Positions 1-64,000 of a stretch of 64,000 nucleotides of DNA are shown here, in pieces (positions within the stretch are counted from its first letter, which is position 1; the number at the start of each line of letters is the position of its first letter). The translations under genes were made by a program, and so were the position numbers. This DNA comes from a virus: IMG/VR virus record IMGVR_UViG_3300028182_000001, positions 94,404-158,403 of that record; one strand, given 5' to 3'. The notes under the pieces are model-generated. The model ran no database searches. It worked only from the letters and a program-made list of their open reading frames with translations, and was not told the DNA's origin.

Positions 1-102
1 CAGAAGCAGGACTTCTTCGAGAAGACTGTAACTCAATACGAGCAATCAACAGCTGAGAACACAGAGATGAACCTAGCAGATTTATCTAAACTTCAGTTCT
101 AA
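1..102 (+). CDS. Ribonucleotide reductase beta subunit, C-terminal fragment
   Basis: Frame 1 reads QKQDFFEKTVTQYEQ...QF*; DFFE..V..Y is the conserved R2 C-terminal motif. Confidence 0.75.
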   Translation, partial: QKQDFFEKTVTQYEQSTAENTEMNLADLSKLQF

Positions 103-107
103 ATTAG

Positions 108-138
108 AGAAGAGGAAAATTCCTCTTCTTTTTTTTTT
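108..138 (+). terminator. Rho-independent terminator
   Basis: AGAAGAGGA-aaat-TCCTCTTCT followed by a T run. Confidence 0.9.
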
Positions 139-148
139 GTATAAGTTG

Positions 149-177
149 TTGACTTATAGGAAACAATGATATAAGAT
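149..177 (+). promoter_or_regulatory. sigmaA-type early promoter
   Basis: TTGACT-N17-TAAGAT. Confidence 0.85.
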
Positions 178-201
178 AACGTTAACGATATAAGAGAGGG
201 C

Positions 202-858
202 GTGTTGATGATGAAACATGATATTGAGAAGTATGACAGAATAACGGTAACACAAGAAGACGTGGAGCGTTTATTTGCTTGGAGAGATAAGAACAAAGAG
301 TTAGTTCGAAACTTTAGTCCAGTATTGGAAGAAGGTGTTATCATAAACTCTGTAACACCACTTGTAAGGTACGTGTTCAAGAAAGAGGGGGATAGATACC
401 TATATAGTATCATTAACAAGTCCGATGACGTAGTATTGCACGCATTAATATGGGATTATACTACAGGTGAAGGTGTAACTGCCCACACAATACTGGATAA
501 CAGTCAAGCAAAAGACTACAACGAAACACTTATCTCCTTACATGCATCTTTAATGGCATACATGGAGCACTACCAAGATAACGAAGAGTATGTACGCAGA
601 CAGACGAACTCCGTTGTGGTAGGTCATAAGAAGCATAAGAAGTCCAAAAAGAAAACACCGATTAAGATACGTAGGAAGGTTTACTCACTTACAATTACAG
701 AGGAGAGCTTAAACGAAGTTACACGATCCTACGAACGCCAAATTGATAAATGGACTGTAAGAGGTCATTGGAGAAAAACAAAGAATGGTCAAGTATGGAT
801 TAAACCTCATGTCAGAGGAGAAGGGAAAGAAGTTACACCAAAAGAATATAAGTTGTAA
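202..858 (+). CDS. Phage protein with basic C-terminus (VRGHWR...WIKPHVRG motif)
   Basis: ORF track; follows promoter. Confidence 0.75.
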   Translation: MLMMKHDIEKYDRITVTQEDVERLFAWRDKNKELVRNFSPVLEEGVIINSVTPLVRYVFKKEGDRYLYSIINKSDDVVLHALIWDYTTGEGVTAHTILDNSQAKDYNETLISLHASLMAYMEHYQDNEEYVRRQTNSVVVGHKKHKKSKKKTPIKIRRKVYSLTITEESLNEVTRSYERQIDKWTVRGHWRKTKNGQVWIKPHVRGEGKEVTPKEYKL

Positions 859-866
859 AAAAGTTG

Positions 867-896
867 TTGACTAAAAGACAACCTACATGCTATAGT
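867..896 (+). promoter_or_regulatory. sigmaA-type early promoter
   Basis: TTGACT-N18-TATAGT with TG extension. Confidence 0.85.
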
Positions 897-920
897 AAGT
901 ACAGAAGTTAAGAAAAGGAG

Positions 921-1154
921 ATGTTACAAATGAAAATAAACGAAACAGTTTATGTGAATGGTAACTTAGAGTACGCATCTGAGGATGGTGCAATCTACGT
1001 AGTTATTGAACACGGTACAGGAGACATAATAGGTTTGGAGTATAATGACGCTACTGTCCACACTCTATACTCATTCATGTCAAAAGTAAAGTCTGCGTAC
1101 AATAGACGTGCAACAAAACAAGCATTAGAAAATATATCAATAGGAGGAGAGTAA
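921..1154 (+). CDS. Hypothetical protein (start may be 930)
   Basis: ORF with AAGGAG RBS. Confidence 0.75.
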   Translation: MLQMKINETVYVNGNLEYASEDGAIYVVIEHGTGDIIGLEYNDATVHTLYSFMSKVKSAYNRRATKQALENISIGGE

Positions 1155-1155
1155 C

Positions 1156-1434
1156 ATGAGATACACGTTAAAGAAAGCTTTAGTTGCTAGTAGAACTTCA
1201 AGTAGTGGACGAGTTGGTACTCCGATTCTAGGGTACTCTTTGCTAGATAGCGAAACAGGAGAAGTGAGTATCTATAGTAAATATGACGCTTACCGATTCG
1301 TAAAGTACCACAAAGCTACAAACTGCGAAGCAAAGACACGTACGATGGTGGTAGACGGGGAAAGTGAAACAATCTATTACTTAAAACCAAATGACGGAAC
1401 AAAAATGAACGAATATCTATTATCAGTAGAATAG
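1156..1434 (+). CDS. Hypothetical protein
   Basis: ORF with AGGAGG RBS. Confidence 0.8.
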   Translation: MRYTLKKALVASRTSSSGRVGTPILGYSLLDSETGEVSIYSKYDAYRFVKYHKATNCEAKTRTMVVDGESETIYYLKPNDGTKMNEYLLSVE

Positions 1435-1446
1435 GAGGAGAATAAT

Positions 1447-3821: not shown

Positions 3822-4121
3822 ATGACGGTGAATAGAAAAGAGATTGCAAGACGTGCGGCCCACATCGGTAACTACGATATCGGTGGGACAGAAGAACTAA
3901 CAAAGATAATCGAAGATGTTATCGTTAGTGCCCTAGCAAACGGGGAAAGTGTGAAGTTCGGTAAAGTATGTAAATGGGATATCGAGGAAGTACCTGAGAA
4001 GAGAGCATACGATGGTCTAAATAAAAAGTATTTTACTAGACCAGCGAAGCGCATACCGAAATACAAGCCACTAAAACGACTTACAGATATTGAGCTGCCA
4101 GTACAAAAGAAAGAGGAGTAA
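3822..4121 (+). CDS. HU/IHF/TF1-like DNA-binding protein
   Basis: NRKEIA...VIVSALANGESVKFGK...PAKRIPKYKP pattern. Confidence 0.85.
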   Translation: MTVNRKEIARRAAHIGNYDIGGTEELTKIIEDVIVSALANGESVKFGKVCKWDIEEVPEKRAYDGLNKKYFTRPAKRIPKYKPLKRLTDIELPVQKKEE

Positions 4122-4135
4122 CGATCCTCTTTTTT
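4112..4135 (+). terminator. Rho-independent terminator
   Basis: AGAGGA-N7-TCCTCT followed by Ts. Confidence 0.75.
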
Positions 4136-4150
4136 CTTTGTAATTTATTG

Positions 4151-4179
4151 TTGACTTATAGACAAAGTTACAGTAATAT
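4151..4179 (+). promoter_or_regulatory. sigmaA-type promoter for the methyltransferase pair
   Basis: TTGACT-N17-TAATAT. Confidence 0.85.
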
Positions 4180-4222
4180 TATCTACAGATACAGAATACA
4201 TTATTAAGTTGAGGAGGTAATC

Positions 4223-5245
4223 ATGGACGAACTAAGAGTAGTAGAACTGTTTGCAGGATACGGTAGCCAATCAATGGCACTGAAACGAGCAAACATCAAT
4301 TATAAAACTGTAGCGATTGCAGAGATTGATAAGGACGCACTGGTTTCTTATGAAGCAATCCACGGCAAACCAAATAACCTTGGAGACATTACCAAGGTAA
4401 GAGGAGAAGACGTTCCTGACCACGACTTCATGACGTATTCATTCCCTTGTACAGACATCTCTGTATCAGGTGCGATGAAAGGTCTATTGGAAGGTTCAGG
4501 TACAAGCTCTAGTACGTTATGGGATGTAAAGAGAGTAATAGAAGCGAAGAAACCTAGATTCCTAATGATGGAAAACGTAGACAACCTTGTTATCAAATTC
4601 ATGGACGACTACCTACTATGGTTAAAGTACCTAGAATCACAAGGGTATGCTACATCGTGGAAAGTTATTGACGCATCTCCTTACGTACCACAAAGACGTA
4701 AACGTGTTATAGCAATCTCTCGATTAGATGGACAGGCATTCCCGTTCCCTGAAGACCCTACGGAGCGTACATATGATTTAATAGACGTGCTAGAGGAGTT
4801 CGATGATGCAGAAGCATTAGAGAGCTTTAAAGACCCTACAGTGCGAAGTGCTACAGTAGACCCTGTTACATATTATAACCCGAATTCAGATTACTATAAA
4901 CTGCAACCTGAGAATAGTAGAGCATCATTCATTGGATACATAGGGAACCAACCGAAACAGGCTACACGAGTATATGAACCTATCACGGCTTCAACGTTGA
5001 CTGCTAATGGTGGCGGCCAAGGTGGGAAGACAGGTCTGTATCACCTAGGTACGCATATCCGAAATCTTAGTCCGTTAGAAGCGTGGCGCATCATGGGTGT
5101 GAGTGACGAGGACTTCTACAAGGCAAAAGCAACAGGTATCAAGAAGACCCAACTACTACGTCAAGCAGGGAACTCTATCGTAGTTGATATCATGGTACCA
5201 ATATTTGAAAAGCTCTTTAAAGATTATATGAAGGAGACAAAATAA
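4223..5245 (+). CDS. DNA cytosine-C5 methyltransferase, full length
   Basis: Motifs I ELFAGYG, IV SFPC, VI ENV, VIII QRRKR, IX RNLSPLEAWRIMG, X QAGNSIV. Confidence 0.95.
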   Translation: MDELRVVELFAGYGSQSMALKRANINYKTVAIAEIDKDALVSYEAIHGKPNNLGDITKVRGEDVPDHDFMTYSFPCTDISVSGAMKGLLEGSGTSSSTLWDVKRVIEAKKPRFLMMENVDNLVIKFMDDYLLWLKYLESQGYATSWKVIDASPYVPQRRKRVIAISRLDGQAFPFPEDPTERTYDLIDVLEEFDDAEALESFKDPTVRSATVDPVTYYNPNSDYYKLQPENSRASFIGYIGNQPKQATRVYEPITASTLTANGGGQGGKTGLYHLGTHIRNLSPLEAWRIMGVSDEDFYKAKATGIKKTQLLRQAGNSIVVDIMVPIFEKLFKDYMKETK

Positions 5246-5246
5246 T

Positions 5247-5912
5247 ATGACAAAGAAGAAACTAAAAGTACTAGAATTATTTGCTGGCACGAGGTCAGTA
5301 GGTAAAGCATTCGAAGCACAGGGACACGAGGTATATAGTGTTGAGTGGGATCAGAAACATCCAGGAATCCATTGGTACGCAGATATATCGAAAATCACTG
5401 CACAGGAAATCATCGAACGCTTTGGTAAACCTGATATCATTTGGGCTAGTCCTGATTGTACAAGCTACTCAGTAGCAGGTATCTCGCATCACCGTAGAAA
5501 GGATGACGATGGTAACTTACGTCCTATTAGTGAGTATGCCCAATTCTGCGACACTACAAACCAACACGTAGTAGATTTAATTCGAGAACTTCAACCGAAG
5601 TACTACTTCATTGAGAATCCTCGTGGTGGAATGAGAAAGATGAACTTCATGCAGGATGACGCATTACCGAATGGTGGTAAACGTTACACAGTTACATATT
5701 GCCAGTACGGGGACACTCGTATGAAGCCAACTGACTTATGGACTAACCATCCTGAGCCGAAGTTTAAAGAGCCTTGTAAAAATGGTATGCCTTGTCACGT
5801 AGCTGCCCCTCGTGGAAGCGCAACAGGTACACAAGGTATAAAAGGGTCTGTAGACCGTTCACGCATCCCTGAGGAGCTATGCAACCACGTAGCGAAGATT
5901 TCTGAAGAGTAA
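5247..5912 (+). CDS. Short DNA cytosine-C5 methyltransferase-like protein
   Basis: Motif I ELFAGT, IV-like ASPDC, VI ENP; 221 aa. Confidence 0.85.
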   Translation: MTKKKLKVLELFAGTRSVGKAFEAQGHEVYSVEWDQKHPGIHWYADISKITAQEIIERFGKPDIIWASPDCTSYSVAGISHHRRKDDDGNLRPISEYAQFCDTTNQHVVDLIRELQPKYYFIENPRGGMRKMNFMQDDALPNGGKRYTVTYCQYGDTRMKPTDLWTNHPEPKFKEPCKNGMPCHVAAPRGSATGTQGIKGSVDRSRIPEELCNHVAKISEE

Positions 5913-5918
5913 AAGATT

Positions 5919-5945
5919 GAGAGGTGTAACAACCTCTCTTTTTTT
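5919..5945 (+). terminator. Rho-independent terminator
   Basis: GAGAGGT-N6-ACCTCTC followed by Ts. Confidence 0.85.
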
Positions 5946-5960
5946 GTGTCTATTATCTTG

Positions 5961-5989
5961 TTGACTTATAGTGTATGATATAGTACTAT
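5961..5989 (+). promoter_or_regulatory. sigmaA-type promoter
   Basis: TTGACT-N17-TACTAT. Confidence 0.8.
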
Positions 5990-6022
5990 TATAGAAGATT
6001 ATATGGAGGAGGAGAGGACATT

Positions 6023-6181
6023 ATGCCAAAGTTTTTGCAACTTGTTTTATGTGGATTACTTTTAGCAGGAGGGACAGACGACTGGATTAAAGATAGTATC
6101 CCGTCCGCCGTGTTCTTCTATGTTGTAGGTATAGGGCTACTGATTCATTTGTTTTTCCGATTCCTAGATGAACAGTACTAA
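6023..6181 (+). CDS. Small membrane protein, 52 aa (not in ORF track)
   Basis: MPKFLQLVLCGLLLAGG...; two hydrophobic segments; GGAGG RBS. Confidence 0.7.
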   Translation: MPKFLQLVLCGLLLAGGTDDWIKDSIPSAVFFYVVGIGLLIHLFFRFLDEQY

Positions 6182-6196
6182 TAAGGAGGACGTAAC

Positions 6197-9100
6197 TTGA
6201 AAGCATTATTTCTACAAGAGTTTGTAAGAGAAAGTCACATGCAACGACAGAATGATGGATCGTTTAAAAACATATTCCTCCAAACTAACGGAGGAAAGCT
6301 GCTAAAGAAACTAATCCATGAAGGGTTAGAGCTAACGAAGAATGACTACTACATCGACTATGCGTTCTTCAAAGTACCTGAGGTTATTACTCGGGATAAT
6401 CGAGATAGAGCCATTAAGTACAAACCACCAACTGCAAAAGAATCGAAACCTGAATACGAGAACTTATACAAACGTATCGTACAGGACAAGCCTGACATTA
6501 TCATTCCTTCAGGTAAACTTGGGTGTAAAGCTCTACTGAATGTAGCAGAGATTTCTAAGCTACGAGGAGTACCACAACAAGTTACAATCACTGCAAATAT
6601 TGAAATGTTTGATGAGAGCGCAGTTGTTGAAGGTGTAGATAACTCAGGTTGGATTACAGAAACGTATACACATACATGTTGGGTTATGCCTATATACAGT
6701 ATGGAATACATGCTTGTTAATCCGAAGATTCAGAACTTAGTAGAAGCAGACTTCGGTACATTGAAGAAGTACGTAGAGCAAGGTGACAACGCATTTATTG
6801 CGAAGGATGTAAAGTACGAAGATGTTACAACTATTGAACGTGTACGAGAAATCTTCACCAAGATAGTAAAAGAAGCTCCTATCGTAGCGTGGGATTTAGA
6901 GACCAATACGTTAGAAGCCGATAAAGCAGGTTCTAAACCACTAGTAATCTCTCTTTGTTGGAAAGAGGGTACAGGTGTAACCATTCCGTTAGAACATAAG
7001 GACTGGACATGGCTTCCTGGTCACTTAGCTGAGATTTACAACTACATAAAAGAATTTGTTGCCGATCCGAAGATTGTTAAAGTCGGACACAACATCAAGT
7101 TCGATATCAGGTTCCTACGCTTATCTAGAGGGTTTACAGAGTTCAATAACCATCGTGATACAAAAACAATGTACTACCTACTTGTAAACCAGGATGTAAA
7201 AGGTTCATTACGTCTATCCGACTTAACATTCGAATTTACAGATATGGGTGGATATGATAGAGCGCTAGAGGACTTTAAAAAGGATTACAAAGAGAACTAC
7301 AAGAAGAACGAGAAAGAACGTATTGCAAAACTAAAAGAAGAATTTAAAGCGCAATGTGCAAAAGAAAGAGCAGAAGTACAACAGCAAGTGAAGGACGCAA
7401 AAGCAGAATTACGTTTACTCAAGAAGGAATCTCCAACGACTGAAATTCTTAATAGAATAACAGAGTTACAGGAGATTGCACAACGTAAGTATGTGAAACC
7501 TTCGATGCCTGACTTTGGGACCGCAGGTTCACCAGTCAATCCTGTAGACGGATCGGACTTCTGTTATGAGTGGATTCCACTATTCGAAATGCTTTCTCCG
7601 TACGCTAGTGGTGACGTAGACGTGTGTTTACGTATCTATAACCAACTAGACCAAAGATGTCAGCAAAAAGGCTTAGAGCACATTAGAGAGCTTTATACGA
7701 ATCATTATCCACAACTATCTGCAACACTTGCTAAAATCGAAGCAACGGGAATCAAGTTAAACATCCCGTACGTACAAGCACTAGCAGATGCGTACCAAAA
7801 GGAAGAGGATCGTTTAACGGCAATCATCCGTAAGTTCCCTGAAGTAAAGCAAATGGAAGACGAACATCGCCAGCTTTACCAAATGGGATTAAACGAACTT
7901 GCAAAGCCTGTAGCTGAGAGAGACAAGAAGATAGCGGCCTTACGTGATAAGTACAAGGACAAGCTAGAGTTTAACGCAAACTCTCCTGACGACAAGAAAG
8001 AGGTACTGTACAAGATTACAGGCATTCGACTACCGTTCGATAAAGAGCGTCTAGTAGACTCTGTATTCGAGAAGGGACTAAAAGAGGAAGAGATTGAATG
8101 GTGCCATTACAAAACGAATACTGCGAACTTGGAGTACATCGCCAAGGAGTATCCTGAGTACAAGGAACTAGCAGAAGTTATGATCCATCACTCACTCGTT
8201 AAAACACGTAAGCAAAGTTTCACGTACAAGTTCCTTAGTATGGTAGATATGAACGATATCTTGCACGGTACGTTCAACCCTGAAGGTACAGAAACATCTC
8301 GTCTATCGTCAAAAGACCCGAACTGTCAGAACTTCCCTCGTAAGACGGAAGATGTAACACGGTTCGACTATCAGCACCCTATTAAACGAATGTTCGTAAG
8401 TAGATTCACAAACGGAGCACTACTACAACTCGATTACTCTTCACTTGAATCTCGTATCATGGCTTTAATTGCATACGATGAGGAAATGATTGAAGCGTTC
8501 TTAACGAAGAAGGATGTACATACGCACACTGCTTCACTGGTATTCAAAAAGGCAGAAGAAGATGTAACAGGTGATGAACGTACGGCCGCTAAACGGGTAA
8601 CATTCGGACTAGCGTACGGAGAAGCACCATTCTCGTTCGCACCTAAATACAACATGACAATCCAAGAAGCAGAGAAACTATTTGATGACTACTTCAAGAA
8701 CAAACCGAAGATTAAAACGTACATTGATGAAACGAAAGAGAAAGCTAGACAGACGGGTTATATCTCTTGTATGCAAGGTTTCACTCGTAACTTACGAGAT
8801 GTGTATTCGCAAGATAAACAGAAACGTAATGGTGCGTTACGTCAGTCTGTAAATACACAGGTACAGGGATCGGGTGCATTCTTAACGAATAACTCATTAA
8901 TCTACATCAACAACATTATTGAGAAGCAGGGACTACGTTCTCGTATCGTTCTAACTGTACACGATAGTATTGTTATAGATTGTCCACCCGAAGAAATTCA
9001 CATCATGGCTCACATCGGTAAAACAGTAATGGAGAACTTACCGATCCCTTGGTTACACATCGAGTGGAAAGGTGAAACAATTCGATTCCCTATTACGGCA

Positions 9101-9313
9101 GATGTGGAGATTGGTACAACATACAACGATATGGTTAACTACGATAAGGACGAACTAAACACGTTCCAAAAAGTAGAGAACTACTGTAAGTATCATATGG
9201 ACTTAAAGAGCGTGAAGCATTACAAAGAGTCAGGTATCATCACAGAAGAGAAAGCAAAAGAGCTAAAGGCTACGATTGAATCCAAAAAACAAGCGTACCA
9301 AACGGCTGTATAA
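6197..9313 (+). CDS. Family A DNA polymerase with N-terminal UDG-like and 3'-5' exonuclease domains
   Basis: Exo motifs AWDLET, GHNIKFD; pol motifs DYSSLESR, AKRVTFGLAYG, TVHDS; TTG start with AAGGAGG. Confidence 0.95.
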   Translation: MKALFLQEFVRESHMQRQNDGSFKNIFLQTNGGKLLKKLIHEGLELTKNDYYIDYAFFKVPEVITRDNRDRAIKYKPPTAKESKPEYENLYKRIVQDKPDIIIPSGKLGCKALLNVAEISKLRGVPQQVTITANIEMFDESAVVEGVDNSGWITETYTHTCWVMPIYSMEYMLVNPKIQNLVEADFGTLKKYVEQGDNAFIAKDVKYEDVTTIERVREIFTKIVKEAPIVAWDLETNTLEADKAGSKPLVISLCWKEGTGVTIPLEHKDWTWLPGHLAEIYNYIKEFVADPKIVKVGHNIKFDIRFLRLSRGFTEFNNHRDTKTMYYLLVNQDVKGSLRLSDLTFEFTDMGGYDRALEDFKKDYKENYKKNEKERIAKLKEEFKAQCAKERAEVQQQVKDAKAELRLLKKESPTTEILNRITELQEIAQRKYVKPSMPDFGTAGSPVNPVDGSDFCYEWIPLFEMLSPYASGDVDVCLRIYNQLDQRCQQKGLEHIRELYTNHYPQLSATLAKIEATGIKLNIPYVQALADAYQKEEDRLTAIIRKFPEVKQMEDEHRQLYQMGLNELAKPVAERDKKIAALRDKYKDKLEFNANSPDDKKEVLYKITGIRLPFDKERLVDSVFEKGLKEEEIEWCHYKTNTANLEYIAKEYPEYKELAEVMIHHSLVKTRKQSFTYKFLSMVDMNDILHGTFNPEGTETSRLSSKDPNCQNFPRKTEDVTRFDYQHPIKRMFVSRFTNGALLQLDYSSLESRIMALIAYDEEMIEAFLTKKDVHTHTASLVFKKAEEDVTGDERTAAKRVTFGLAYGEAPFSFAPKYNMTIQEAEKLFDDYFKNKPKIKTYIDETKEKARQTGYISCMQGFTRNLRDVYSQDKQKRNGALRQSVNTQVQGSGAFLTNNSLIYINNIIEKQGLRSRIVLTVHDSIVIDCPPEEIHIMAHIGKTVMENLPIPWLHIEWKGETIRFPITADVEIGTTYNDMVNYDKDELNTFQKVENYCKYHMDLKSVKHYKESGIITEEKAKELKATIESKKQAYQTAV

Positions 9314-9329
9314 TTTCTGTAACTTTTTG

Positions 9330-9358
9330 TTGACACACAGAATAGGATAGTGTAATAT
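9330..9358 (+). promoter_or_regulatory. sigmaA-type promoter
   Basis: TTGACA-N17-TAATAT. Confidence 0.85.
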
Positions 9359-9417
9359 ACTAAGAGAAGAGACAAGCAGTTTCTTCTCTTTAGTTTAAAG
9401 GATAGAGGTGAGAGTAT

Positions 9418-52059: not shown

Positions 52060-52097
52060 TAAAAAAAAAACTAATAAAAGAGGAGTAGTGAATTATT

Positions 52098-52493: not shown

Positions 52494-52495
52494 TT

Positions 52496-54250: not shown

Positions 54251-54351
54251 TAGGAGAGGATGGTATAATTGGGTGAGTGGTTACTAGAGTTATTAGGTGC
54301 AATACTAGATTTAGTAGGGGCTATCGTCTCTAACGATGAGGAGGAGAAATA

Positions 54352-54681: not shown

Positions 54682-54693
54682 AGGAGGGAGACG

Positions 54694-54831
54694 ATGAGTG
54701 AAGAACTAGCTCAGGAAAAGATAGCAGAGATTGTAAAGAAAGGTGAAGAACTATCGGCTTCGTACGATTGGTCGGAGAGTTTAGCCCTTGAAGCATTACT
54801 TGATTGGATAAAGGAGGAATATTATGTTTAA
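54694..54831 (+). CDS. 45 aa acidic protein (not in ORF track)
   Basis: MSEELAQEKIAEIV...; GGAGG RBS. Confidence 0.6.
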   Translation: MSEELAQEKIAEIVKKGEELSASYDWSESLALEALLDWIKEEYYV

Positions 54832-55564
54832 TTTCATCGGTTGTGGTAGCGCATTTAACACAGCATTAGGTAATAACAGTGCTTACATCAAGGAGGACGG
54901 TATTCTATTCATGATTGACTGCGGTAGTGCCAACTTCGATAGAATCAAGCGTAGCGGCCTGTTAGAGGACGTAGAAGACATCGTAGTATTAATGACACAT
55001 ACACACCCTGACCACGTAGGATCGTTAGGAGACTTAATCTTCTATAGTTACTTCTGTATGGGACAAGTTAAAGTACCTAACTTAACTGTATACGCACCAT
55101 ATGATATGAAGATTAGTAAAGTGTTACAGGGTATGGGAGTAGAACGAGAGTGTTATAGACTCGTACAGTTTGATAACTCTAACCAGTATCCACCTGGGTT
55201 CCGTAAAGATGGGTTCCGTATCCAGTTCCAAGTAGTCCCTAACCGACATGTACCTGAGATTGTATGCTACGGCTACTTGATTACATATAAAGATAAAACT
55301 ATCTATTATAGTGGGGATTCTAATACTATCTCACCATTCATACTGAATATGTTCAAAAAAGGTGAGATTGACTACTTCTATCAGGATACTTGCCAAGCAG
55401 ACTATGAAGGTAATGTTCACCTATCGTTGCGAGAACTCAGTGAACTGATCCGTCCTTGGGACAAACCTGAGAAAGTATACTGTATGCACTTAGATGAGAG
55501 CTTCAACCGAGAGCAAGCAGAGGGTTATGGCTTTAATGTTGTACAACCTACTATAACTATATGA
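54824..55564 (+). CDS. Metallo-beta-lactamase-fold hydrolase (RNase Z/Apyc1-like)
   Basis: GCGSAF..NNSA, IDCG, THTHPDH, YYSGD, VH, MH. Confidence 0.85.
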   Translation: MFNFIGCGSAFNTALGNNSAYIKEDGILFMIDCGSANFDRIKRSGLLEDVEDIVVLMTHTHPDHVGSLGDLIFYSYFCMGQVKVPNLTVYAPYDMKISKVLQGMGVERECYRLVQFDNSNQYPPGFRKDGFRIQFQVVPNRHVPEIVCYGYLITYKDKTIYYSGDSNTISPFILNMFKKGEIDYFYQDTCQADYEGNVHLSLRELSELIRPWDKPEKVYCMHLDESFNREQAEGYGFNVVQPTITI

Positions 55565-55583
55565 TAAGGGGAGAAGGAATAGA

Positions 55584-56774
55584 ATGAAAAGTTCATTATT
55601 TGTACCTGATAAAATTAACGTAGGATTCCAGGATCGCAGTGGTACGTATACTGGTAAGTTAGCGTACGTAATCTACTGGGATGCGAGAGGTAAACTACGA
55701 AAAGAAACTTCGTGGGAAGGGTGGAGAGATACAAAGATTGATAACCTTGTCGCAGATAACGTACCGACTTCAGGATTCGTATTAAATAAGAAAGCAGGAG
55801 ACTATAAGTACGACTGGAACCATCGTCAAGCTTATGCTCGTGTATACGATCCTCGTGGGTTTGAGTTCGAGATTACCATTGACAATCTACTATTCATCCT
55901 AGAGTGTTGCGATATGTTCAAAGGTAAAGGGATCGACGGTGAGTTAGTATATGCTTGGGATGGTAAAGAGTTAGTATTGCTACCTGTTAACTCTCCCGAT
56001 TACAAAGAAATCATGGAGTATAACAAAATCATAAAAGAGAACAAAACATTTAAAGGTAAAGACTTAAAACTAGGATACAAGTACCTAGATAAAGATGGTA
56101 AAGAGTGGGTATACTTAGGTAGATTCCACAAGTACGATAGCTACGATGGTGTGAAGAAGAAAAACAAATTCTACTTCTTCGCTAAGAGTTACATACCTTG
56201 GAATAAGAAAGAGGAAGTACACTGGTCTATTGAAACTATAGGTTCTCTTGGACATAAGTTTATTACGGAGTCTCCTGACGGTTGCGTGGAGAACTTTGAC
56301 GAGCTTCTAGAAATACTAGAGAGCGATAGAGAGTACTCTCCTATTGACTTCTCGAAGGATGAGTACATACCAATGACGTTTGAAGAGTTTCTAACAGCGT
56401 TGAATGATAAGTCAAACTTAGAAGAGTGGTTCTATAGTCCTGTAGCACAACGTAATGTTGAACGTTATGATAAATACTACACTAGAAATAATCGTGTTAA
56501 AGTAGAGAGAAGTACGGTGAAGCAGTTGAAGGATAGTGCAAGAACGTACTCCTACTACTCTAACGACTACAAATGGGTTCAAGAATATAACAACGAAGAA
56601 GAGAGAAGACCGCTATTTGTAGTATCAAACGGTGGTTCTAAAAGCCACTATGCTACATACGACAACTACCATGAGTACTTCAAAGGTACACTAGAAGAAG
56701 TATTTGAATACTTACAACCGTCTACTAGAAAAGTATACCTAGAGAACGGAAAACTATATTCAGTAGATAAATAA
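55584..56774 (+). CDS. Hypothetical protein
   Basis: 396 aa; YDPRGFEFEI motif. Confidence 0.8.
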   Translation: MKSSLFVPDKINVGFQDRSGTYTGKLAYVIYWDARGKLRKETSWEGWRDTKIDNLVADNVPTSGFVLNKKAGDYKYDWNHRQAYARVYDPRGFEFEITIDNLLFILECCDMFKGKGIDGELVYAWDGKELVLLPVNSPDYKEIMEYNKIIKENKTFKGKDLKLGYKYLDKDGKEWVYLGRFHKYDSYDGVKKKNKFYFFAKSYIPWNKKEEVHWSIETIGSLGHKFITESPDGCVENFDELLEILESDREYSPIDFSKDEYIPMTFEEFLTALNDKSNLEEWFYSPVAQRNVERYDKYYTRNNRVKVERSTVKQLKDSARTYSYYSNDYKWVQEYNNEEERRPLFVVSNGGSKSHYATYDNYHEYFKGTLEEVFEYLQPSTRKVYLENGKLYSVDK

Positions 56775-56788
56775 GGAGGATCGTTAAT

Positions 56789-57148
56789 ATGAACAAATGG
56801 GGAGTTATTATAGGGCTATGTATCGTAGCCCTAGTAGTCTCCTTCTCTATCTTTAGTTACTATCGTGTGACTACAGTAGAAGGAACTATCACAGACAAGT
56901 ATAACAAGCGTGATGGGAAGAAAGATAAGTTCTACCTTGTTATCAAGGACGAGGACAACAACGAGCAGGTACTAGAGAATACTGATAGTACTCTCATGTT
57001 AAAATGGGATTCAGCAGACATTCAAGCCACAACAAAAGTAGGTAAGAAGTACAAAGTAGAGTTACGTGGTTGGAGAGTTCCGATCCTATCCATGTTCCCG
57101 AATGTAGACAATATTAAAGAAATCAAAACATACGAAGGAGAGAAGTAA
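56789..57148 (+). CDS. Membrane-anchored protein
   Basis: N-terminal TM; G.RVP.LS.FPN motif. Confidence 0.75.
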   Translation: MNKWGVIIGLCIVALVVSFSIFSYYRVTTVEGTITDKYNKRDGKKDKFYLVIKDEDNNEQVLENTDSTLMLKWDSADIQATTKVGKKYKVELRGWRVPILSMFPNVDNIKEIKTYEGEK

Positions 57149-57149
57149 A

Positions 57150-57584
57150 ATGGCAAAAGATATCGTGAGTGTAAATGATGAGAAGGTATTAGCATTAAAA
57201 AAATTAGTAGACGAGAAGAAAGAGAAGTTAGCAAGTAGAAAATCATTACGTCAAAAATCGCTAACAACTTGCACGCTTGATTTAGATGGTACACGTCATA
57301 ACTTCAATGTACTGAACACGAAGCAGTTAAACGGTATTCTAGTACGTTTACACGCATTAGTATTAGCGGCCGAGGACTTAGATGTTGAAATTGATGTAGT
57401 AGAATTAAGTGGTTTCCCTCTATCTCATTGGATTACAGACTTAAAAGGTAAGATTAACGAAATGTCTATCCGTGAGGAAGAAGCAGAATTACGTAAAGCA
57501 GAAGCGGCCCTAGACAAGTTGCTATCTAAAGACAAGAAAGTAGAACTAGAGCTAGATTCTTTAGCAGCGTTCTTAAAAGGTTGA
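57150..57584 (+). CDS. Coiled-coil hypothetical protein
   Basis: ORF with RBS. Confidence 0.8.
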   Translation: MAKDIVSVNDEKVLALKKLVDEKKEKLASRKSLRQKSLTTCTLDLDGTRHNFNVLNTKQLNGILVRLHALVLAAEDLDVEIDVVELSGFPLSHWITDLKGKINEMSIREEEAELRKAEAALDKLLSKDKKVELELDSLAAFLKG

Positions 57585-57593
57585 TATGTGTAA

Positions 57594-57627
57594 AATACAG
57601 GGTGTAAAAACTCTGTATTTTTTTTTT
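57594..57627 (+). terminator. Rho-independent terminator
   Basis: AATACAGGGT-loop-ACTCTGTATT followed by a T run. Confidence 0.85.
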
Positions 57628-57637
57628 AAATTTGTTG

Positions 57638-57667
57638 TTGACGATTGGACAACCTCTATGTTATTCT
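57638..57667 (+). promoter_or_regulatory. sigmaA-type promoter
   Basis: TTGACG-N18-TATTCT. Confidence 0.75.
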
Positions 57668-57698
57668 AAGTGTACAAGATAACAAGGAGGTGAAACAC

Positions 57699-57872
57699 AT
57701 GAAAAACCTCGGATTGAGGGTCGGTGTATGTGTCATTATAGCAGCCTTAGCAATAGTTGGTGCAGTAGTTGTAGCCGCCAAGTTAGGGGCAGGTACTACA
57801 GTTGTAGTTGCTTTAGCTATCATAGGAGCTTGTAGTTTACTTGACTGGATTTCAGAACGAATGATTGGTTGA
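57699..57872 (+). CDS. Small two-TM membrane protein
   Basis: ATG 57699 after AAGGAGGTG. Confidence 0.75.
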   Translation: MKNLGLRVGVCVIIAALAIVGAVVVAAKLGAGTTVVVALAIIGACSLLDWISERMIG

Positions 57873-57900
57873 TAATTAAATAATAGAAAGGGAGATTAAT

Positions 57901-58293
57901 ATGGGATTCAATTTTAAAAATATTACAATCACAGGAAGAAAAGGTACAGTAAACATCAACGGTAAAACATATGTAGGTAATAGCGTTGTAACAAGAAACG
58001 GAGTAGTAATTGTCGATGGTGTTGTCCAAGAAGGATCAGTAGAGGACAAGCTAGAGATTACGGTACTCTGCAACGTGGACAAGATTGAAAGCGAACAATC
58101 TATCACAGTTATCGGTAACGTAACTGGTGACATCCAGGCAGGTTCTAGTGTAAGTTGCGATGACGTGACAGGAAATGTACAAGCAGGTTCCAGTGTGAGT
58201 TGTGACGACATCGGTGGAGATGCAAGAGCAGGGTCATCTATCAGTTGCGATGGTATTAAAGGAAATGCTTACGCTAACATCATTAGCAGGTAA
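57901..58293 (+). CDS. Beta-solenoid-like repeat protein
   Basis: 15 aa repeats of the form V.G.VQAGSSVSCDD. Confidence 0.7.
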   Translation: MGFNFKNITITGRKGTVNINGKTYVGNSVVTRNGVVIVDGVVQEGSVEDKLEITVLCNVDKIESEQSITVIGNVTGDIQAGSSVSCDDVTGNVQAGSSVSCDDIGGDARAGSSISCDGIKGNAYANIISR

Positions 58294-58326
58294 TGCATAA
58301 AAATACATAACAGGAGGACAAATAAC

Positions 58327-58530
58327 ATGCACTATCTAACACTAATTGAACTATGGGAGAAACTGAATAGTCTAAAGGACAAGCACCCTGACGCAGAGGT
58401 AGTATTAGGGCAACACACCGATCCTCGTACGTACTGGGGTCTAGTTGATATAAAGTACGATCCTATCTTTGATACATTGGATTTACATTCTAGACCAAAG
58501 GAGGAGCAACATGTTAGTCCAACACTATAA
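58327..58530 (+). CDS. Hypothetical protein
   Basis: ORF with RBS. Confidence 0.7.
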   Translation: MHYLTLIELWEKLNSLKDKHPDAEVVLGQHTDPRTYWGLVDIKYDPIFDTLDLHSRPKEEQHVSPTL

Positions 58531-58774
58531 AGGTATCCGTCTTCAACTCATTAATCGGAAGTACGGAGAACGTAAAGCGAAACGATTCACATTAGGAGGT
58601 ACCAATCAGAACGTTTGGATACCGAATAAGCACCTAGAGTCTGATGGGAGATTGAAATACGGTCAGAATATTGATTACGTGTTTAGACAGGCACAGAGAC
58701 AGTTAGAGCTTGCAGGATACACGGAGCCTATCATTGGTATTAAAAGAAAATCATTAGTAGAGGAGAGAGTGTAA
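58511..58774 (+). CDS. Hypothetical protein
   Basis: ATG 58511 after AAGGAGG. Confidence 0.7.
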   Translation: MLVQHYKGIRLQLINRKYGERKAKRFTLGGTNQNVWIPNKHLESDGRLKYGQNIDYVFRQAQRQLELAGYTEPIIGIKRKSLVEERV

Positions 58775-59406
58775 TGGTATTAGGAGGTTTAGCAGTATTC
58801 TCATTGATTGTGGTAGTTATTTTATGTGTGATTTGGGCTAGACATGAGTATAAAAAGCAGGTTCGTATTGGTGAGGAACTTGATAAAGAACGTGCAGAGC
58901 TAGAGAGACAACTATTAGAGGAGGAGCAAGAAAGAGCACGATTAGAACAAGAACGATTAGCAAAAGTAAAGATGGAAACAAATACATACTTACGTGAGCA
59001 AGGGTACAAACCATCTATCAAGATTCAAAAGAAAGAGGAACCTGTGGAGATAGTATATCCGATGTCTCGTGCTCAAGCGGCACCGACTATGAAATCATCA
59101 CCAGCGCCTACGCAAAGACGTACAAGTTCTAGTGTAAGTAGCACACCGAAAGCAAAAGCAACACCTAAAACTACTGCACGATCCACTAGCAGACGTGACG
59201 ATGATGACGACTACAATTACAATAACTCAACAGTTCTAGGAAGTACGTGCGGAAGTAGTAGCTGGGGTTCTTCTTCTTCTAGTAGTGACGATAGTTGGGG
59301 TTCTAGTTCTTCTCGTAGCTCATGTGGAAGCGCTAGCAGTAGTTGGGGTAGTGATTCATCGTCTAGTAGCTCATCAAGTGATAGTGGGTCATCATGGTGC
59401 GATTGA
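58774..59406 (+). CDS. Membrane-anchored protein with Ser/Gly-rich tail
   Basis: TM, coiled coil, then SSSSWG repeats ending WCD. Confidence 0.75.
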   Translation: MVLGGLAVFSLIVVVILCVIWARHEYKKQVRIGEELDKERAELERQLLEEEQERARLEQERLAKVKMETNTYLREQGYKPSIKIQKKEEPVEIVYPMSRAQAAPTMKSSPAPTQRRTSSSVSSTPKAKATPKTTARSTSRRDDDDDYNYNNSTVLGSTCGSSSWGSSSSSSDDSWGSSSSRSSCGSASSSWGSDSSSSSSSSDSGSSWCD

Positions 59407-59424
59407 TAAATGGGAGGGAAAATT

Positions 59425-59727
59425 ATGAACTTAGCTAAAGAACTATTGGAACTAGCAAAAAGTAAACTAGAAACAAACTCTAAGGACTATATAGAAGAAG
59501 TAAGACGTAAAGCTAAAAGGGCAGCCAATGGCTCTCGTGTACAGGTAGAGGTAGAGTTACCTACAAAATCAAGAAGCTTAAAGAGAGAAATTGCTAATGC
59601 GTTATACGAAGACGGTTTCAGCGTAACGACAAAAGACTTCCCAAGTACAGGGAGCTTCTATGTTATTGTCGATTGGAGTCGTGAGGTACCTAAAAAGCCT
59701 GAACATATCGACTACACAGGGTACTAA
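59425..59727 (+). CDS. Hypothetical protein
   Basis: ATG 59425 after GGAGG. Confidence 0.7.
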   Translation: MNLAKELLELAKSKLETNSKDYIEEVRRKAKRAANGSRVQVEVELPTKSRSLKREIANALYEDGFSVTTKDFPSTGSFYVIVDWSREVPKKPEHIDYTGY

Positions 59728-59739
59728 GGAGGGATCGAC

Positions 59740-59913
59740 ATGCAACACCCTTGCGAAGATTTATTACTAGTACTAGCAGAGACCAACGTGTACAATAGGC
59801 AGCTAGAACAACGTAACAAGTATCTAGAAAACAAGTTGAAGAAAGAGAGACGGTGGATTTACTTCTTTATAGTACTAACATGGTTTTGGATGTTAAAATA
59901 CTTTTTATCTTAG
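59740..59913 (+). CDS. 57 aa protein with hydrophobic C-terminus (not in ORF track)
   Basis: MQHPCEDLLLVLAE...; AAGGAGG RBS. Confidence 0.65.
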   Translation: MQHPCEDLLLVLAETNVYNRQLEQRNKYLENKLKKERRWIYFFIVLTWFWMLKYFLS

Positions 59914-59924
59914 GAGGAAACAAA

Positions 59925-60266
59925 ATGACAACACCTTATGTACGTTTAACCGATGTAAAACTATTACTGAAAGATTTGAAACATCCTGATTCTACTATTG
60001 ACCACGCTATAGACTATTTATACGAGAAAGCAAAATTTGCTAATGTTGATGACGGTAGCGATACACATGAACACTACTATGTTGCTAAGTCTATGACACG
60101 TAAGGACAAAATAGACCTATGTTATCAAGTAGCAGTATCAAGAGGTGAAGAAATAGAGTGTCCGTTTGAAGATATGCTAGAGCACAACTTAGAGAAAGCA
60201 TTCTTATACTACTTCAAGATACACTGGGAAAAACAGTATAAGGAGGAGAAAGAGTGGCTATTGTAG
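59925..60266 (+). CDS. Hypothetical protein
   Basis: ATG 59925 after AGGAGG. Confidence 0.7.
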   Translation: MTTPYVRLTDVKLLLKDLKHPDSTIDHAIDYLYEKAKFANVDDGSDTHEHYYVAKSMTRKDKIDLCYQVAVSRGEEIECPFEDMLEHNLEKAFLYYFKIHWEKQYKEEKEWLL

Positions 60267-60757
60267 GTGATTACATGGTAAATGGTAACTGTACAGTCTG
60301 TGGGAAGTATCTACCAAAAGGTACACTATGTTGTGACGAAATAGTACAAAGTAACTATAACAAGTGGTGGGACGAAATGCAAAAGAAGAAAGAGGATCAG
60401 CAACCTGCATTAGTACTTAACGTACGTAAACGTTCTATTGGTACAGGAATCAGAGGGATTAAGGATTTAATGAAAGAAAGCGGTCCGAAGTTCTTCGCAG
60501 ATGTAGTAGCGAAAAATAACAGATTAAGAGAGGAAGAGAAATCAATGAAAAAAGAGTACTACGTGCTACGTATATATAATAGTGAGTGTGGTTTAGTAAA
60601 CGAGCATACAAGTAAAGAGAAATACGAAATTATGAACAAAATCTATTTAGCGATAAGTGACCGTGATTTTGTACTGCAAGACTTAGATATTGTAGAAACG
60701 GGTTTGCCTGATGATGTTATTACTCTATACAAAGTTACAGGGAGGTTCGTTCGATGA
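60254..60757 (+). CDS. Hypothetical protein with Cys cluster; possible internal start at 60545
   Basis: CTVC...CC; RBS. Confidence 0.65.
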   Translation: MAIVGDYMVNGNCTVCGKYLPKGTLCCDEIVQSNYNKWWDEMQKKKEDQQPALVLNVRKRSIGTGIRGIKDLMKESGPKFFADVVAKNNRLREEEKSMKKEYYVLRIYNSECGLVNEHTSKEKYEIMNKIYLAISDRDFVLQDLDIVETGLPDDVITLYKVTGRFVR

Positions 60758-61191
60758 GTACAAGTGATAAAGCAGTAACATGGTTAATGGATCGTGCAGA
60801 TAAGTTAGGTGGGTTTATTGATGAACTAGCAAAGCAATTAGGAGTAGCTGCCACACATGTATATGAAGTATTAGTAAAGCAACAGTTTGTAGATGGTATT
60901 AGTTTACTAGTCAAAGCTGGTGTATGGATTGTAGTACTGACTCTATTATGGACATTGATAAACAAGTTCGTATTCAAGAAGTGGAGTAGCTATTACGATG
61001 ATGACCCATATAGTTTCGATTCACAGTTCTTCCTAAGTATAGTCGTTGTCATTTTTGGAGTAGTTACTATCTTCTTCGGTTTCGCAATTGTAGACTGGTT
61101 AACACTAGGTATCAAGAAACTATTAAACCCTGAGTACTACGCACTAGAGGACATCATGACATTTATCAAAGGGCAGGTGGATAAGAAATGA
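60754..61191 (+). CDS. Membrane protein
   Basis: Two TM segments; NPEYYA motif. Confidence 0.8.
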   Translation: MSTSDKAVTWLMDRADKLGGFIDELAKQLGVAATHVYEVLVKQQFVDGISLLVKAGVWIVVLTLLWTLINKFVFKKWSSYYDDDPYSFDSQFFLSIVVVIFGVVTIFFGFAIVDWLTLGIKKLLNPEYYALEDIMTFIKGQVDKK

Positions 61192-61337
61192 CACAACTAG
61201 AACATTTCATGTACATACGTATTATGTATCAAGAAGCAACCACAAAACCAGCTTCACTAAGTCAACTACATAAAGAAGTAGTGGAGTATTGTGAAAAGTT
61301 TGGCGCTGATTACGGACGAACAGTAATACTATTATAA
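61188..61337 (+). CDS. 49 aa protein (not in ORF track)
   Basis: MTQLEHFMYIRIMY...; ATGA overlap. Confidence 0.6.
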   Translation: MTQLEHFMYIRIMYQEATTKPASLSQLHKEVVEYCEKFGADYGRTVILL

Positions 61338-61351
61338 GAGGAGGAAAACAA

Positions 61352-61525
61352 ATGAAATACTTTCTATTTAAACTAGCAGGTGTACTAACAATCGGTATGG
61401 GAGGATTCATTGTAGGGTACGCTAAAGGAGTATCAATTTATACAGTACTAGGATCAATCTTCTTCTACTTCATTGGACAGTTACTATATGACCAAGCATT
61501 CAAGAATAGAAAGGAAGATTACTAA
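61352..61525 (+). CDS. 57 aa membrane protein (not in ORF track)
   Basis: MKYFLFKLAGVLTIG...; AGGAGG RBS. Confidence 0.7.
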   Translation: MKYFLFKLAGVLTIGMGGFIVGYAKGVSIYTVLGSIFFYFIGQLLYDQAFKNRKEDY

Positions 61526-61740
61526 TGAATGACTTTCAAGTAATGGCACTATTGGGAGCTATAGTTACGGCTATAGTCTTCCTAATAGTATTAGTAGTAT
61601 ATAACTTTGTATTCATGTTGAAACTGGCCGCAGTCATTACATTTATTGGTATTGTAGTACTTGGTATATACGCAATATTTGCAGGGATCGGATATATTGT
61701 CCACTTACTAATAAACTTATTCAGTAGAAAGGGGAAATAG
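61525..61740 (+). CDS. Small membrane protein
   Basis: Hydrophobic; coupled to upstream gene. Confidence 0.7.
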   Translation: MNDFQVMALLGAIVTAIVFLIVLVVYNFVFMLKLAAVITFIGIVVLGIYAIFAGIGYIVHLLINLFSRKGK

Positions 61741-61743
61741 AAC

Positions 61744-62067
61744 ATGGAAACTACTACAGATAAAAGAAAAGCAGAATGTATCCATTGTAAGGTAGAAGAC
61801 ATGGTACCTAAAGACAAAATTAAAGTAGCAGACGGGAACGACTACTGGGCATGTGAACCCTGTATAAAAGAGAAGAGAGAGATGGCACGCTCCTATAAAA
61901 TGGTATTCATGGATCAGGGAATATTCGGAGCTACCTTATTAGAGGATATCAACCAAGAAGAGTTAAGTAGAATCCTTCATGAGCTATTGACCGTGCATAA
62001 AGGAGTTGTACTCAGTCTAGAGGAAGTAACAGTAAAACGTAAAGAGAAAGCACAGGTATTACACTAA
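61744..62067 (+). CDS. Zinc-finger protein
   Basis: CIHC...CEPC. Confidence 0.7.
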   Translation: METTTDKRKAECIHCKVEDMVPKDKIKVADGNDYWACEPCIKEKREMARSYKMVFMDQGIFGATLLEDINQEELSRILHELLTVHKGVVLSLEEVTVKRKEKAQVLH

Positions 62068-62095
62068 TACATATATAGTATAGGAGGATTACATA

Positions 62096-62482
62096 ATGAC
62101 AGAAGTAGAAAAGAAAGAAGAAGTATTAGAATTAGAACCAATCGTAGGTCACTTAGTAGTAAAAGGGGGATTACATACAGAGTTCCTTAATGCTACAACA
62201 AGCGCAATTAAGAAGTATACCAAGCAAGGATATGAAGTAGAAACACATTACCAAATGGTGACCGATCCAAATAGTGGTGAGTTAACACATTCTGCATATC
62301 TAGTAGGTAAGTTGAAAGAAACGAAACCTGAAGAACCTGAACTAATAACTGTACACATACCGCATGTTAGCCAAGAAGCACTAAGTAAAGTAGAAGAGTG
62401 GGTAGAGAGTTATTGGGGAACAGGACATATGCCAAATGGTATATATAATACGATTATGGATTTAATAGATTCAGCAAAATAA
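62096..62482 (+). CDS. Hypothetical protein
   Basis: ORF with RBS. Confidence 0.75.
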   Translation: MTEVEKKEEVLELEPIVGHLVVKGGLHTEFLNATTSAIKKYTKQGYEVETHYQMVTDPNSGELTHSAYLVGKLKETKPEEPELITVHIPHVSQEALSKVEEWVESYWGTGHMPNGIYNTIMDLIDSAK

Positions 62483-62496
62483 ATTTCAATTAGTAG

Positions 62497-62526
62497 TTGA
62501 CTAACAAGAAACAATCATGGTACTAT
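62497..62526 (+). promoter_or_regulatory. sigmaA-type promoter firing into a non-coding region
   Basis: TTGACT-N18-TACTAT. Confidence 0.7.
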
Positions 62527-63361
62527 AACAGTGAGCTTAATAAGAGAAACAAACAATACTATATGAGTAATAAATATGTATGCTAGACGGATCATAATAT
62601 GAAACATTGTAAGCAACGACAAGCGACATAACAGTAAGAGTGAGAACTTCTGTTAAAGCATATATAGAATGGAAAGTATAGCAATACATAATAAAAACAA
62701 GTATAGTAGAGAGAGAGTTTCAAATAGAGAGCTTACCTGTATAGATGAAATAGGTACAGTAGTAAGAGAGTATAGTATATAGAGCAAAGGTATCTATATA
62801 GTATATAAGGAATGAGGAACATAGATAATAACAAATAAAACGTATAGGAACGAACGAGTTACACCTATATCTATATACACACCCACCCAAAAGTCGATAT
62901 AGATTTGTAATTATACTATAGAGCCTTCATGTTTTCAACCGTATATACTATATAGTAACACACCTAGTGAGGGAATCACATCCATATATACCGAATCGGA
63001 AAATACACGTATTCTTCAAATACCCTGTAGTTAGACATAAGGTTCGTATATCGCTCACACATTCTGACTCCTGTATAGTAATTGATATAGTATAGGCACT
63101 ATAGAGATGTTATATAAGAGAAACCAAACGCAGACCGTACCTACGACTACGGAAAGCACAAAACATTTGATGAGACTCTTAAAAAGACTCGTTCACAGTC
63201 GAACCTGGGGCGTGCAAATAAGGTGCGCTATAGACTAGACTCTCATACCTGCATCTATAATTCTATTAGAGGTTAATAGTTGAAAGGATTGGTAGCTTTC
63301 CCCATAGGCCGCCGATCCTTTTGCTATATTGGTAGTAAGGCGTAGAAAGGTGGAATACATA

Positions 63362-63556
63362 ATGATATCACTAGCGTATACTGTACACTGTGACGAGTGT
63401 GCAACACAGGAGCCGTTAATAGCTCAATTACTAACGGAAGCACGATCTGAAGCAGCCAACATGGGTTGGACCGCAGAGAAGATGAGTACGGGGTCACAAC
63501 AATGGTACTGTCCTAGTTGCTCACTACAAAAGCTACAGGCCGCACAACAACAATAA
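63362..63556 (+). CDS. Zinc-ribbon protein
   Basis: CDEC...W...WYCPSC; AAAGGTGG RBS. Confidence 0.7.
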   Translation: MISLAYTVHCDECATQEPLIAQLLTEARSEAANMGWTAEKMSTGSQQWYCPSCSLQKLQAAQQQ

Positions 63557-63726
63557 GAGCGTTTATAGACTGCTACGGTGTAAGTTAATACAATTGCACT
63601 GGGAGCAGTCTTTCTACGTTAATAGACGGTGTGAGAGCCGTTAAAATGCACGTTAGACGGAGCAGCCTATAATTACTATTATTCCCGATTATTTTAAAAT
63701 ATATTCATTTATTTTATGTATAGTTG

Positions 63727-63755
63727 TTGACTTTAAGGAAACAATCCTGTATTAT
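63727..63755 (+). promoter_or_regulatory. sigmaA-type promoter
   Basis: TTGACT-N17-TATTAT. Confidence 0.8.
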
Positions 63756-63803
63756 ATAAGTAAGAGGTAAATAACACATACTATATAAGAGGAGTGAGTT
63801 AGA

Positions 63804-64000
63804 GTGATTACTACAGTAGAGAAGCCGCAAGTGTTTGACATAGGAGGTATCTATAAGTTAGAGTTAGTGAAGCTAGTATCGGGCTACTGCGGAGAATACA
63901 CAGTGGTTAAGACAGGTGCTACATACTCGTTTGATGGTGCAGGTATGACTCGTAGGAAGATACTACAGAAGTTTTGGGATCGGGCTAAGAAGATTGATCC
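63804..64000 (+). CDS. Hypothetical protein, truncated by window end
   Basis: GTG start after AGGAG; open to the end of the window. Confidence 0.65.
   Translation, partial: MITTVEKPQVFDIGGIYKLELVKLVSGYCGEYTVVKTGATYSFDGAGMTRRKILQKFWDRAKKID

Follow-up and report, generated by a model that had tools for sequence, protein, structure and literature searches.

What confines a host restriction site to a single sequence context along a whole phage genome, and why is the site kept at all? The question is raised by a 64,000-nucleotide stretch of viral DNA (the window; positions 94,404 to 158,403 of IMG/VR record IMGVR_UViG_3300028182_000001), which makes up the end of a phage record, complete at 158,403 bp. 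GATC is retained in it almost only as GGATCR or its complement YGATCC, and it carries two C5-cytosine methyltransferase (MTase) genes, M1 (at 4223) and M2 (at 5247). The explanation we favor, with a probability of about 0.6, has three layers: M2 would shield GGATC, the GATC sites are kept apart from one another, and the shielded site is itself under positive selection.

GATC is largely confined to one context

By direct count, the window (GC content 39.2%) contained 126 GATC sites, of which 117 read GGATCR or YGATCC, 59 on the plus strand and 58 on the minus strand. These comprised 73 GGATCG/CGATCC and 44 GGATCA/TGATCC. RGATCY was absent from the window and occurred once in the whole genome, where 268 of 292 GATC sites were in the GGATCR context, evenly along its length. 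An earlier reading of the letters alone (the sequence-only reading) had arrived by hand at the same 117 sites, the same nine exceptions and no RGATCY, with all 17 sites of the first 10 kb in context and the pattern spread over both strands and the whole window; our recount agreed in every particular. Of the 24 exceptions in the genome, 23 retained a GATCR reading on one of the strands, and the exceptions were more distant from GGATCR sites than positions drawn at random.

The bias was compared with two codon-aware null models for coding sites. In a synonymous-codon shuffle that kept codon usage and codon junctions, 254 GATC were observed against 412 expected, 15 AGATC against 214, and 232 GGATCR against 99 (z 16); the hexamer excess divided into 161 GGATCG against 42 and 71 GGATCA against 58. 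Under a stricter null, in which all purged words were penalised and codon frequencies refitted, expectation was 60–79 for GGATCG and 86–89 for GGATCA. Together the two nulls indicate that other GATC has been purged, that GGATCA does not depart from neutrality and that GGATCG is enriched 2–4-fold. The near-purging of other GATC that had been claimed thus held, and so did the enrichment of the hexamer as a whole, except that nearly all of the excess is GGATCG. Since the bias persisted under both nulls, we rejected a codon or composition artefact. A motif longer than the hexamer was rejected because the flanks show no further fixed positions, a strand-polar signal (Chi- or primase-like) because the strands are balanced and sites repel in all three orientations, and a promoter or intergenic role because the non-coding share of the sites equals that of the genome.

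The G bias follows the methyltransferase genes

The DNA polymerase is 91–94% identical to those of Deep Blue, BM15, Bcp1, JBP901 and BCP8-2, which places the phage in Caeruleovirus (Bastillevirinae), on the Bacillus cereus group. M1 at 85–95% identity was found only in Caeruleoviruses, every one of which also carries M2. The comparison of relatives with and without these genes that the sequence-only reading had proposed came out in its favor: Deep Blue, BCP8-2, PK16 and BMBsp2, all with M1 and M2, showed both the GGATC footprint and the second one described below, and none of ten MTase-less Bastillevirinae showed the bias, GATC being either purged or kept without a preference for the preceding G. 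BigBertha, Kamfam and W.Ph. (80 kb read) had 0 GATC each and LBC2 had 5, all four without GGCC. The MTase-less phages that keep GATC were the Tsarbombaviruses BCP78, QCM8, McCartney and MarvelLand, together with Moonbeam and phiNIT1; the GGATCR:AGATCR ratio was 0.6–1.6 in BCP78, QCM8, McCartney, Moonbeam and phiNIT1, compared to 17.9 in this phage. The G bias therefore goes together with the MTase cassette. Distant M1 homologues with a different recognition region (in BMBphi and 1_ICo-2020) came without GGATCR bias.

RGATCY was also about 0 in the MTase-less relatives that keep GATC, so the final R of GGATCR needs no MTase. Judged from these footprints, the enzyme probably recognises GGATC, without the final R. 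The idea that one phage C5 MTase acts on a GGATCR-like site hence stands as a reading of the footprint, with the word probably shortened by one letter. In the shield that we propose, M2, an orphan enzyme, would act on the asymmetric GGATC by methylating a cytosine, probably of one strand. Host cutting of the Sau3AI type would spare GATC in this context, and other GATC would have been purged to about one tenth of expectation. These Bacillus phages as a whole avoid RGATCY, which would account for the lack of GGATCC and GGATCT and leave GGATCR.

GATC sites are evenly spaced

Gaps between all GATC sites in the window averaged 506 bp, with a coefficient of variation (CV) of 0.58 and a longest gap of 1501 bp. 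In the four Caeruleovirus genomes, which are related and so do not provide four independent replicates of the spacing and selection tests, the CV of GGATCR gaps was 0.63–0.70 (P<0.0005 in each). GATC was the most regular 4-mer in all four (CV 0.62–0.68), and CGATCC was the most regular of ~640 comparable hexamers in three genomes and joint first in the fourth. Close GATC pairs were depleted up to ~400 bp in every orientation. The next most regular word was GCWGC (99 sites), with a CV of 0.67–0.76 in the four genomes.

GATC or GATCA was also the most regular word in four Tsarbombaviruses. Even spacing in these MTase-less phages means that spacing does not need the MTases. It was weaker in Moonbeam and absent in phiNIT1 and BMBphi. 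Four M2-bearing phage loci, picked by identity, had spaced GATC (P<=0.001), and in four Bacillales chromosomes with Sau3AI/MutH-type genes spacing was absent or slight at short range. One contig of B. paranthracis with a close M2 orthologue (L294) had 17 GATC in 20.7 kb with a gap CV of 0.30. Tsarbombavirus GATC, for which no MTase was detected, combines even spacing with fast turnover.

Sau3AI, a type IIE enzyme, recognises GATC and brings two sites together in a loop; for two-site enzymes of this type the most probable loops range from <75 to ~500 bp (PMC1474071). These loop sizes match the range of pair depletion here. Sau3AI homologues beside a C5 MTase occur in Bacillales genomes, and in the host genome of one M2-bearing prophage such a homologue (1.4e-79) adjoins a C5 MTase. 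Sau3AI/MutH-type genes were found in 4 of 61 sampled genomes of Bacillales-type order, a sample in which B. cereus-group hosts are not separable. Avoidance of close pairs under two-site Sau3AI-type enzymes, acting in both orientations, may be the most economical reading of the spacing layer. It explains the missing close pairs, not the enrichment or conservation of GGATCG.

The presumed shielded site appears to be selected in its own right

Among relatives at 84% identity, GGATCG was conserved at 0.61–0.68 compared to 0.42–0.46 for the median hexamer, ranking 5–12 of ~1,400 hexamers. Lineage-specific losses and gains of GGATCG lay near each other (P<=0.003), and new GGATCG sites arose far from shared ones. 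The rate of meeting the next GGATCR rose from 0.5/kb below 100 bp to 3.0–3.3/kb at 0.8–1.7 kb, with a control word of equal frequency flat near 2/kb and a neutral GGATCR rate of ~0.7–1.2/kb. Long gaps were rarer than exponential in Caeruleovirus (P 0.007–0.05), not in Tsarbombavirus. Pair avoidance cannot lift the rate above neutral, which indicates that a shielded site is beneficial in itself. We propose that in Caeruleovirus long site-free stretches get filled with GGATCG because the shielded site is of use, the likeliest role being a local mark that some host or phage protein reads. A positively selected mark, offered by the sequence-only reading as an alternative to masking, thus gains support beside masking and not in its place. 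Plain protection does not explain the over-production, conservation and even spacing of shielded sites.

On the phage side, Pfam, PHROG and Atlas searches with genus-specific proteins brought up no informative match that would suggest a reader. The 183-aa protein encoded at 28552-29103, with a weak Rha/AntA-like signal, was rejected for this role since it follows phylogeny and is also present in phiNIT1, which lacks spacing. That protein occurs in all GATC-keeping genera examined and is absent from BigBertha, LBC2 and Kamfam.

On the host side, positive selection and spacing would both be covered if a translocating defence of the DISARM or BREX kind were switched off by methylated GATC at one site per 0.5–1 kb, a mark that Caeruleovirus would write and Tsarbombavirus would borrow from host methylases. 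In the DISARM/BREX-related systems, for example MANTIS, methylation is a self signal and the way the sites are built shows in phage genomes (PMC9142583; 10.1101/2021.12.28.474362; 10.64898/2026.09.23.753747); the ATPase activity of DrmAB drops in the presence of 5-methylcytosine (5mC; PMC9142583), and class 1 DISARM has methylated motifs as an off switch (10.1101/2021.12.28.474362). Both genera carry ~280–330 GATC per genome with a rising gap-filling rate, and the effect is orientation-independent and absent at short range from host chromosomes, as such mimicry would have it. However, our search found no GATC-specific system of this kind in a host, and GATC words of Tsarbombavirus are conserved below average. 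GGATCR and GCGGCC show no mutual repulsion, so not any 5mC suffices. In those systems, the reported effects are that unmodified sites are depleted or biased to one strand, whereas here presumably modified sites are in orientation-independent excess. We therefore hold self-mark mimicry only tentatively, and the more specific proposal that a lytic phage writes a methylated GATC mark every 0.5–1 kb to mimic or disarm a density-reading host defence, selection acting on the presence of the modified site, is likewise a speculative one. If that proposal were true, the compact M2 family (8,000+ clusters) would be GGATC writers.

M1 and M2 form an orphan cassette

The genome has exactly two PF00145 genes, M1 and M2, which form a small cassette flanked by an HU-like gene and the DNA polymerase gene (Table 1). 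M1 contains motif I, the catalytic PC, ENV and motif X in order, with invariant residues in the alignment, and matches M.HhaI over its full length. M2 has motif I, a catalytic Cys, EN and the methyltransferase fold, with a Pfam score above cut-off; it carries PDC instead of PC, and its C-terminal recognition region is very short. P69-D70-C71 and E123-N124 were invariant in 31 M2 homologues. The M2 structure model (predicted local distance difference test score, pLDDT, 81) had M.HaeIII as its best Foldseek match and a fold that also matches DNMT3; a single-sequence prediction at pLDDT 36 was discarded. The M2 family comprises over 8,000 clusters.

Table 1. Coordinates of the GATC and GGCC sites and of the MTase cassette in the window
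Feature	Position	Strand	Basis or remark
GGATC-context GATC sites, n=117	1..64000	both	evenly spaced; direct count
Nine exception GATC sites	19643, 21489, 23075, 23761, 30011, 48938, 50817, 52472, 63444 (19643..63447)	.	direct count
Second footprint, 30/30 GGCC in GCGGCC/GGCCGC	3857..63541	.	direct count
Intrinsic-terminator-like hairpin opening the cassette	4106-4139		
Sigma-A-like promoter match 5' of both MTase genes	4151..4179	+	such matches here no commoner than chance
M1, canonical 340-aa C5 MTase (FPC Cys76, ENV)	4223..5245	+	Pfam 1.4e-51; M.HhaI 1.8e-30; alignments
M1 target-recognition module, residues 238-276	4934..5050	+	64-70% identity to one module of multi-domain MTases, low-GC phage contigs
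M2, compact 221-aa C5-cytosine MTase (FAGT, SPDC with Cys71, ENP)	5247..5912	+	Pfam PF00145 3.2e-8
Intrinsic-terminator-like hairpin closing the cassette	5919..5945	+	

No cognate endonuclease lies beside the MTases, the rest of the genome not having been searched exhaustively for nucleases, and with no endonuclease adjoining them the pair is not a type II restriction-modification system. M1 is not a multispecific phi3T/SPR-type enzyme, since it has one recognition module and P0005–P0007 have several. DISARM DrmMII was likewise rejected as the identity of either gene: for M1, the DrmMII score (3e-28) fell well short of that on a generic type II model (2e-59); M2 reached 9e-7 on DrmMII, and no drm genes were among the neighbors of the cassette. 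BCP8-2 has an HNH gene between its MTases that is absent from this genome. Cassette size varies, with two MTase genes here, three in Deep Blue and four in PK16; the additional MTases of Deep Blue and PK16 had no evident footprint of their own. M1's recognition module recurs in multi-module C5 MTases of three low-GC phage contigs (L065–L067), with half of it deleted in L066.

M2 is the better candidate for GGATC

Specificities, that is, candidate cytosine methylation sites, were assigned to the two enzymes from genome footprints alone. Two temperate-type phage contigs bear M2 orthologues 76–79% identical to M2, with the C-terminal region nearly identical. GATC was depleted in both, and read GGATC at 26 of 27 sites in one (L293, including 7 GGATCT/AGATCC) and at 50 of 65 in the other (P0021), a bias with P of 1e-8 and 6e-7. 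Neither showed a GCGGCC excess. A 9-kb stretch of the P0021 contig, read after the hypothesis had been formed, held 15 GGATCR compared to 1 AGATCR. In a further contig (L174, M2 at 63% identity), chosen after the fact, the count was 12 of 14. The sequence-only reading had left the choice between 4223 and 5247 open; these contigs favor 5247, making M2 the likelier GGATC writer over M1 by roughly 3:1. M1 would then account for the second footprint, GRCCGC/GCGGYC, an assignment made by elimination only.

The converse assignment, in which M1 writes GGATCR and M2 writes GCGGYC or another site, appears unlikely. It draws on a low-GC contig with the M1 module in which 8 of 15 GATC read GGATCA (P=0.02, codon null), and on a relative that has lost half of the module, where the count was 0 of 4. 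That contig also carries two N6/N4 MTases and further recognition modules, and the contigs with M2 orthologues have a far stronger GGATC bias without any excess of GCGGCC.

Several observations weigh against a shield written by M2, the 8 of 15 count among them. The two orthologue contigs are syntenic and thus amount to about one independent case, and the Caeruleoviruses, ~84% identical to one another, also provide few. Other close M2 orthologues (L128/L116 at 84%, L114 and L117) had GATC barely depleted and little or no G bias, L294 had GATC depleted without G bias, and 73 pooled M2-family loci shared no common footprint. Tsarbombaviruses, on the same host group and with no MTase detected, have 281–330 GATC per genome. 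Shielding is therefore not required to keep evenly spaced GATC at ~300 per genome, and the masking claim of the sequence-only reading, borne out insofar as the G bias tracks the MTases, is not the whole story. Four contigs with distant M2 homologues (L133, L188, L185 and L183) lacked GGATCR entirely and kept other GATC (L133, 0 GGATCR vs 10.5 expected), the reverse of the pattern in this phage.

GGCC shows a second footprint

As in the window, GGCC lay within GCGGCC/GGCCGC throughout the genome (72 of 72), and 19 of 26 GGWCC lay within GCGGTCC. GCGGCC and GGATCG were the top two enriched hexamers by a wide margin in the codon shuffle, and under the stricter null GCGGCC stood at 67 observed compared to 10–15 expected. 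GACCGC was retained and GYCCGC nearly absent, in this genome and likewise in four relatives. With CCGC at 0.43 of expectation and GYCCGC nearly absent, GRCCGC alone stands out, and we rejected general CCGC methylation as the explanation of the GGCC pattern. The spacing of GCGGCC was not significant, and no repulsion was seen between GCGGCC and GGATCR.

This second footprint bears on whether the phage methylates its DNA at all. GGATCR could be the remainder left by separate avoidances of host sites (AGATC-type, RGATCY, TGATCA, CGATCG and CGATCA), its excess being a protein-binding site. RGATCY and TGATCA are indeed avoided in MTase-less relatives, whose GATC is spaced as well. However, several independent enzymes would have to spare one context, and do so again for GGCC, and the G bias goes with the MTase genes from genus to genus, turning up again in unrelated phages that have an M2 orthologue. 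We consider this explanation improbable. A mutational drive, in which very-short-patch-type repair of T:G to C:G, by analogy with Dcm and Vsr of E. coli, inflates GGATCG without selection, would fit the C-rich enriched variants GGATCG and GCGGCC but is very hard to credit, since the donor word GGATTG is not depleted (0.9–1.0 compared to 1.0–1.1 in relatives) and such a drive yields neither even spacing nor local compensation.

Relation to known systems

The proposed shield is a variant of a known anti-restriction device of phages, the orphan MTase; the enrichment, conservation and even spacing of the shielded site go beyond it. The C5 MTases of the Bacillus phages phi3T, SPR and rho11 likewise lack an adjacent endonuclease and shield from host restriction (PMC12707154). 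They are multi-module enzymes, like those in which M1's recognition module recurs, with modules stacked in temperate phages, whereas the enzymes of this lytic myovirus are separate, with a single module each. Enzymes of the phi3T type cover whole palindromic sites; here, by contrast, an asymmetric subset of GATC and GGCC appears to be protected and the genome reshaped around that subset.

Genes 172/173 of Bc431v3, in the same genus, are the same two-MTase cassette (PMC3601020). As the one experimental hint, Bc431v3 DNA reportedly digested poorly and modification was suspected, with enzymes that do not probe GGATC or GCGGYC sites, and its authors left the impact of the MTases open (PMC3601020). 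Neither that paper nor the Thurquoise paper describes a target, footprint or spacing, and the searched literature yielded nothing on GGATCR or Caeruleovirus methylation. Nor did we find in it the genome signature seen here, in which a restriction site of the host is retained and enriched, at regular intervals and in a shielded context. The present results name sites that experiments could test for both MTases, uncharacterised enzymes from a genus of biocontrol phages; for the huge and apparently unstudied family of compact C5 MTases they suggest GGATC as a first candidate specificity. GATC spacing in several unrelated Bacillus phages, and not in host chromosomes, would read out two-site restriction or a density-reading defence.

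Other words are purged as well. This genome has 0 CCGG, 1 CCAGA, 8 CGNCG, 3 GAGGC and 5 CGCG, as in BCP78; BigBertha, LBC2 and W.Ph. instead purge GATC and CCWGG, giving two avoidance regimes on the same host group. The Tsarbombaviruses (BCP78 = L256, L093–L097, L257–L258; QCM8; McCartney) have a ~twofold excess of CCWGG and GCWGC. An RlaP-family nucleotidyltransferase encoded at 1887-2672 of the window is shared, among the compared genomes, with Tsarbombavirus only.

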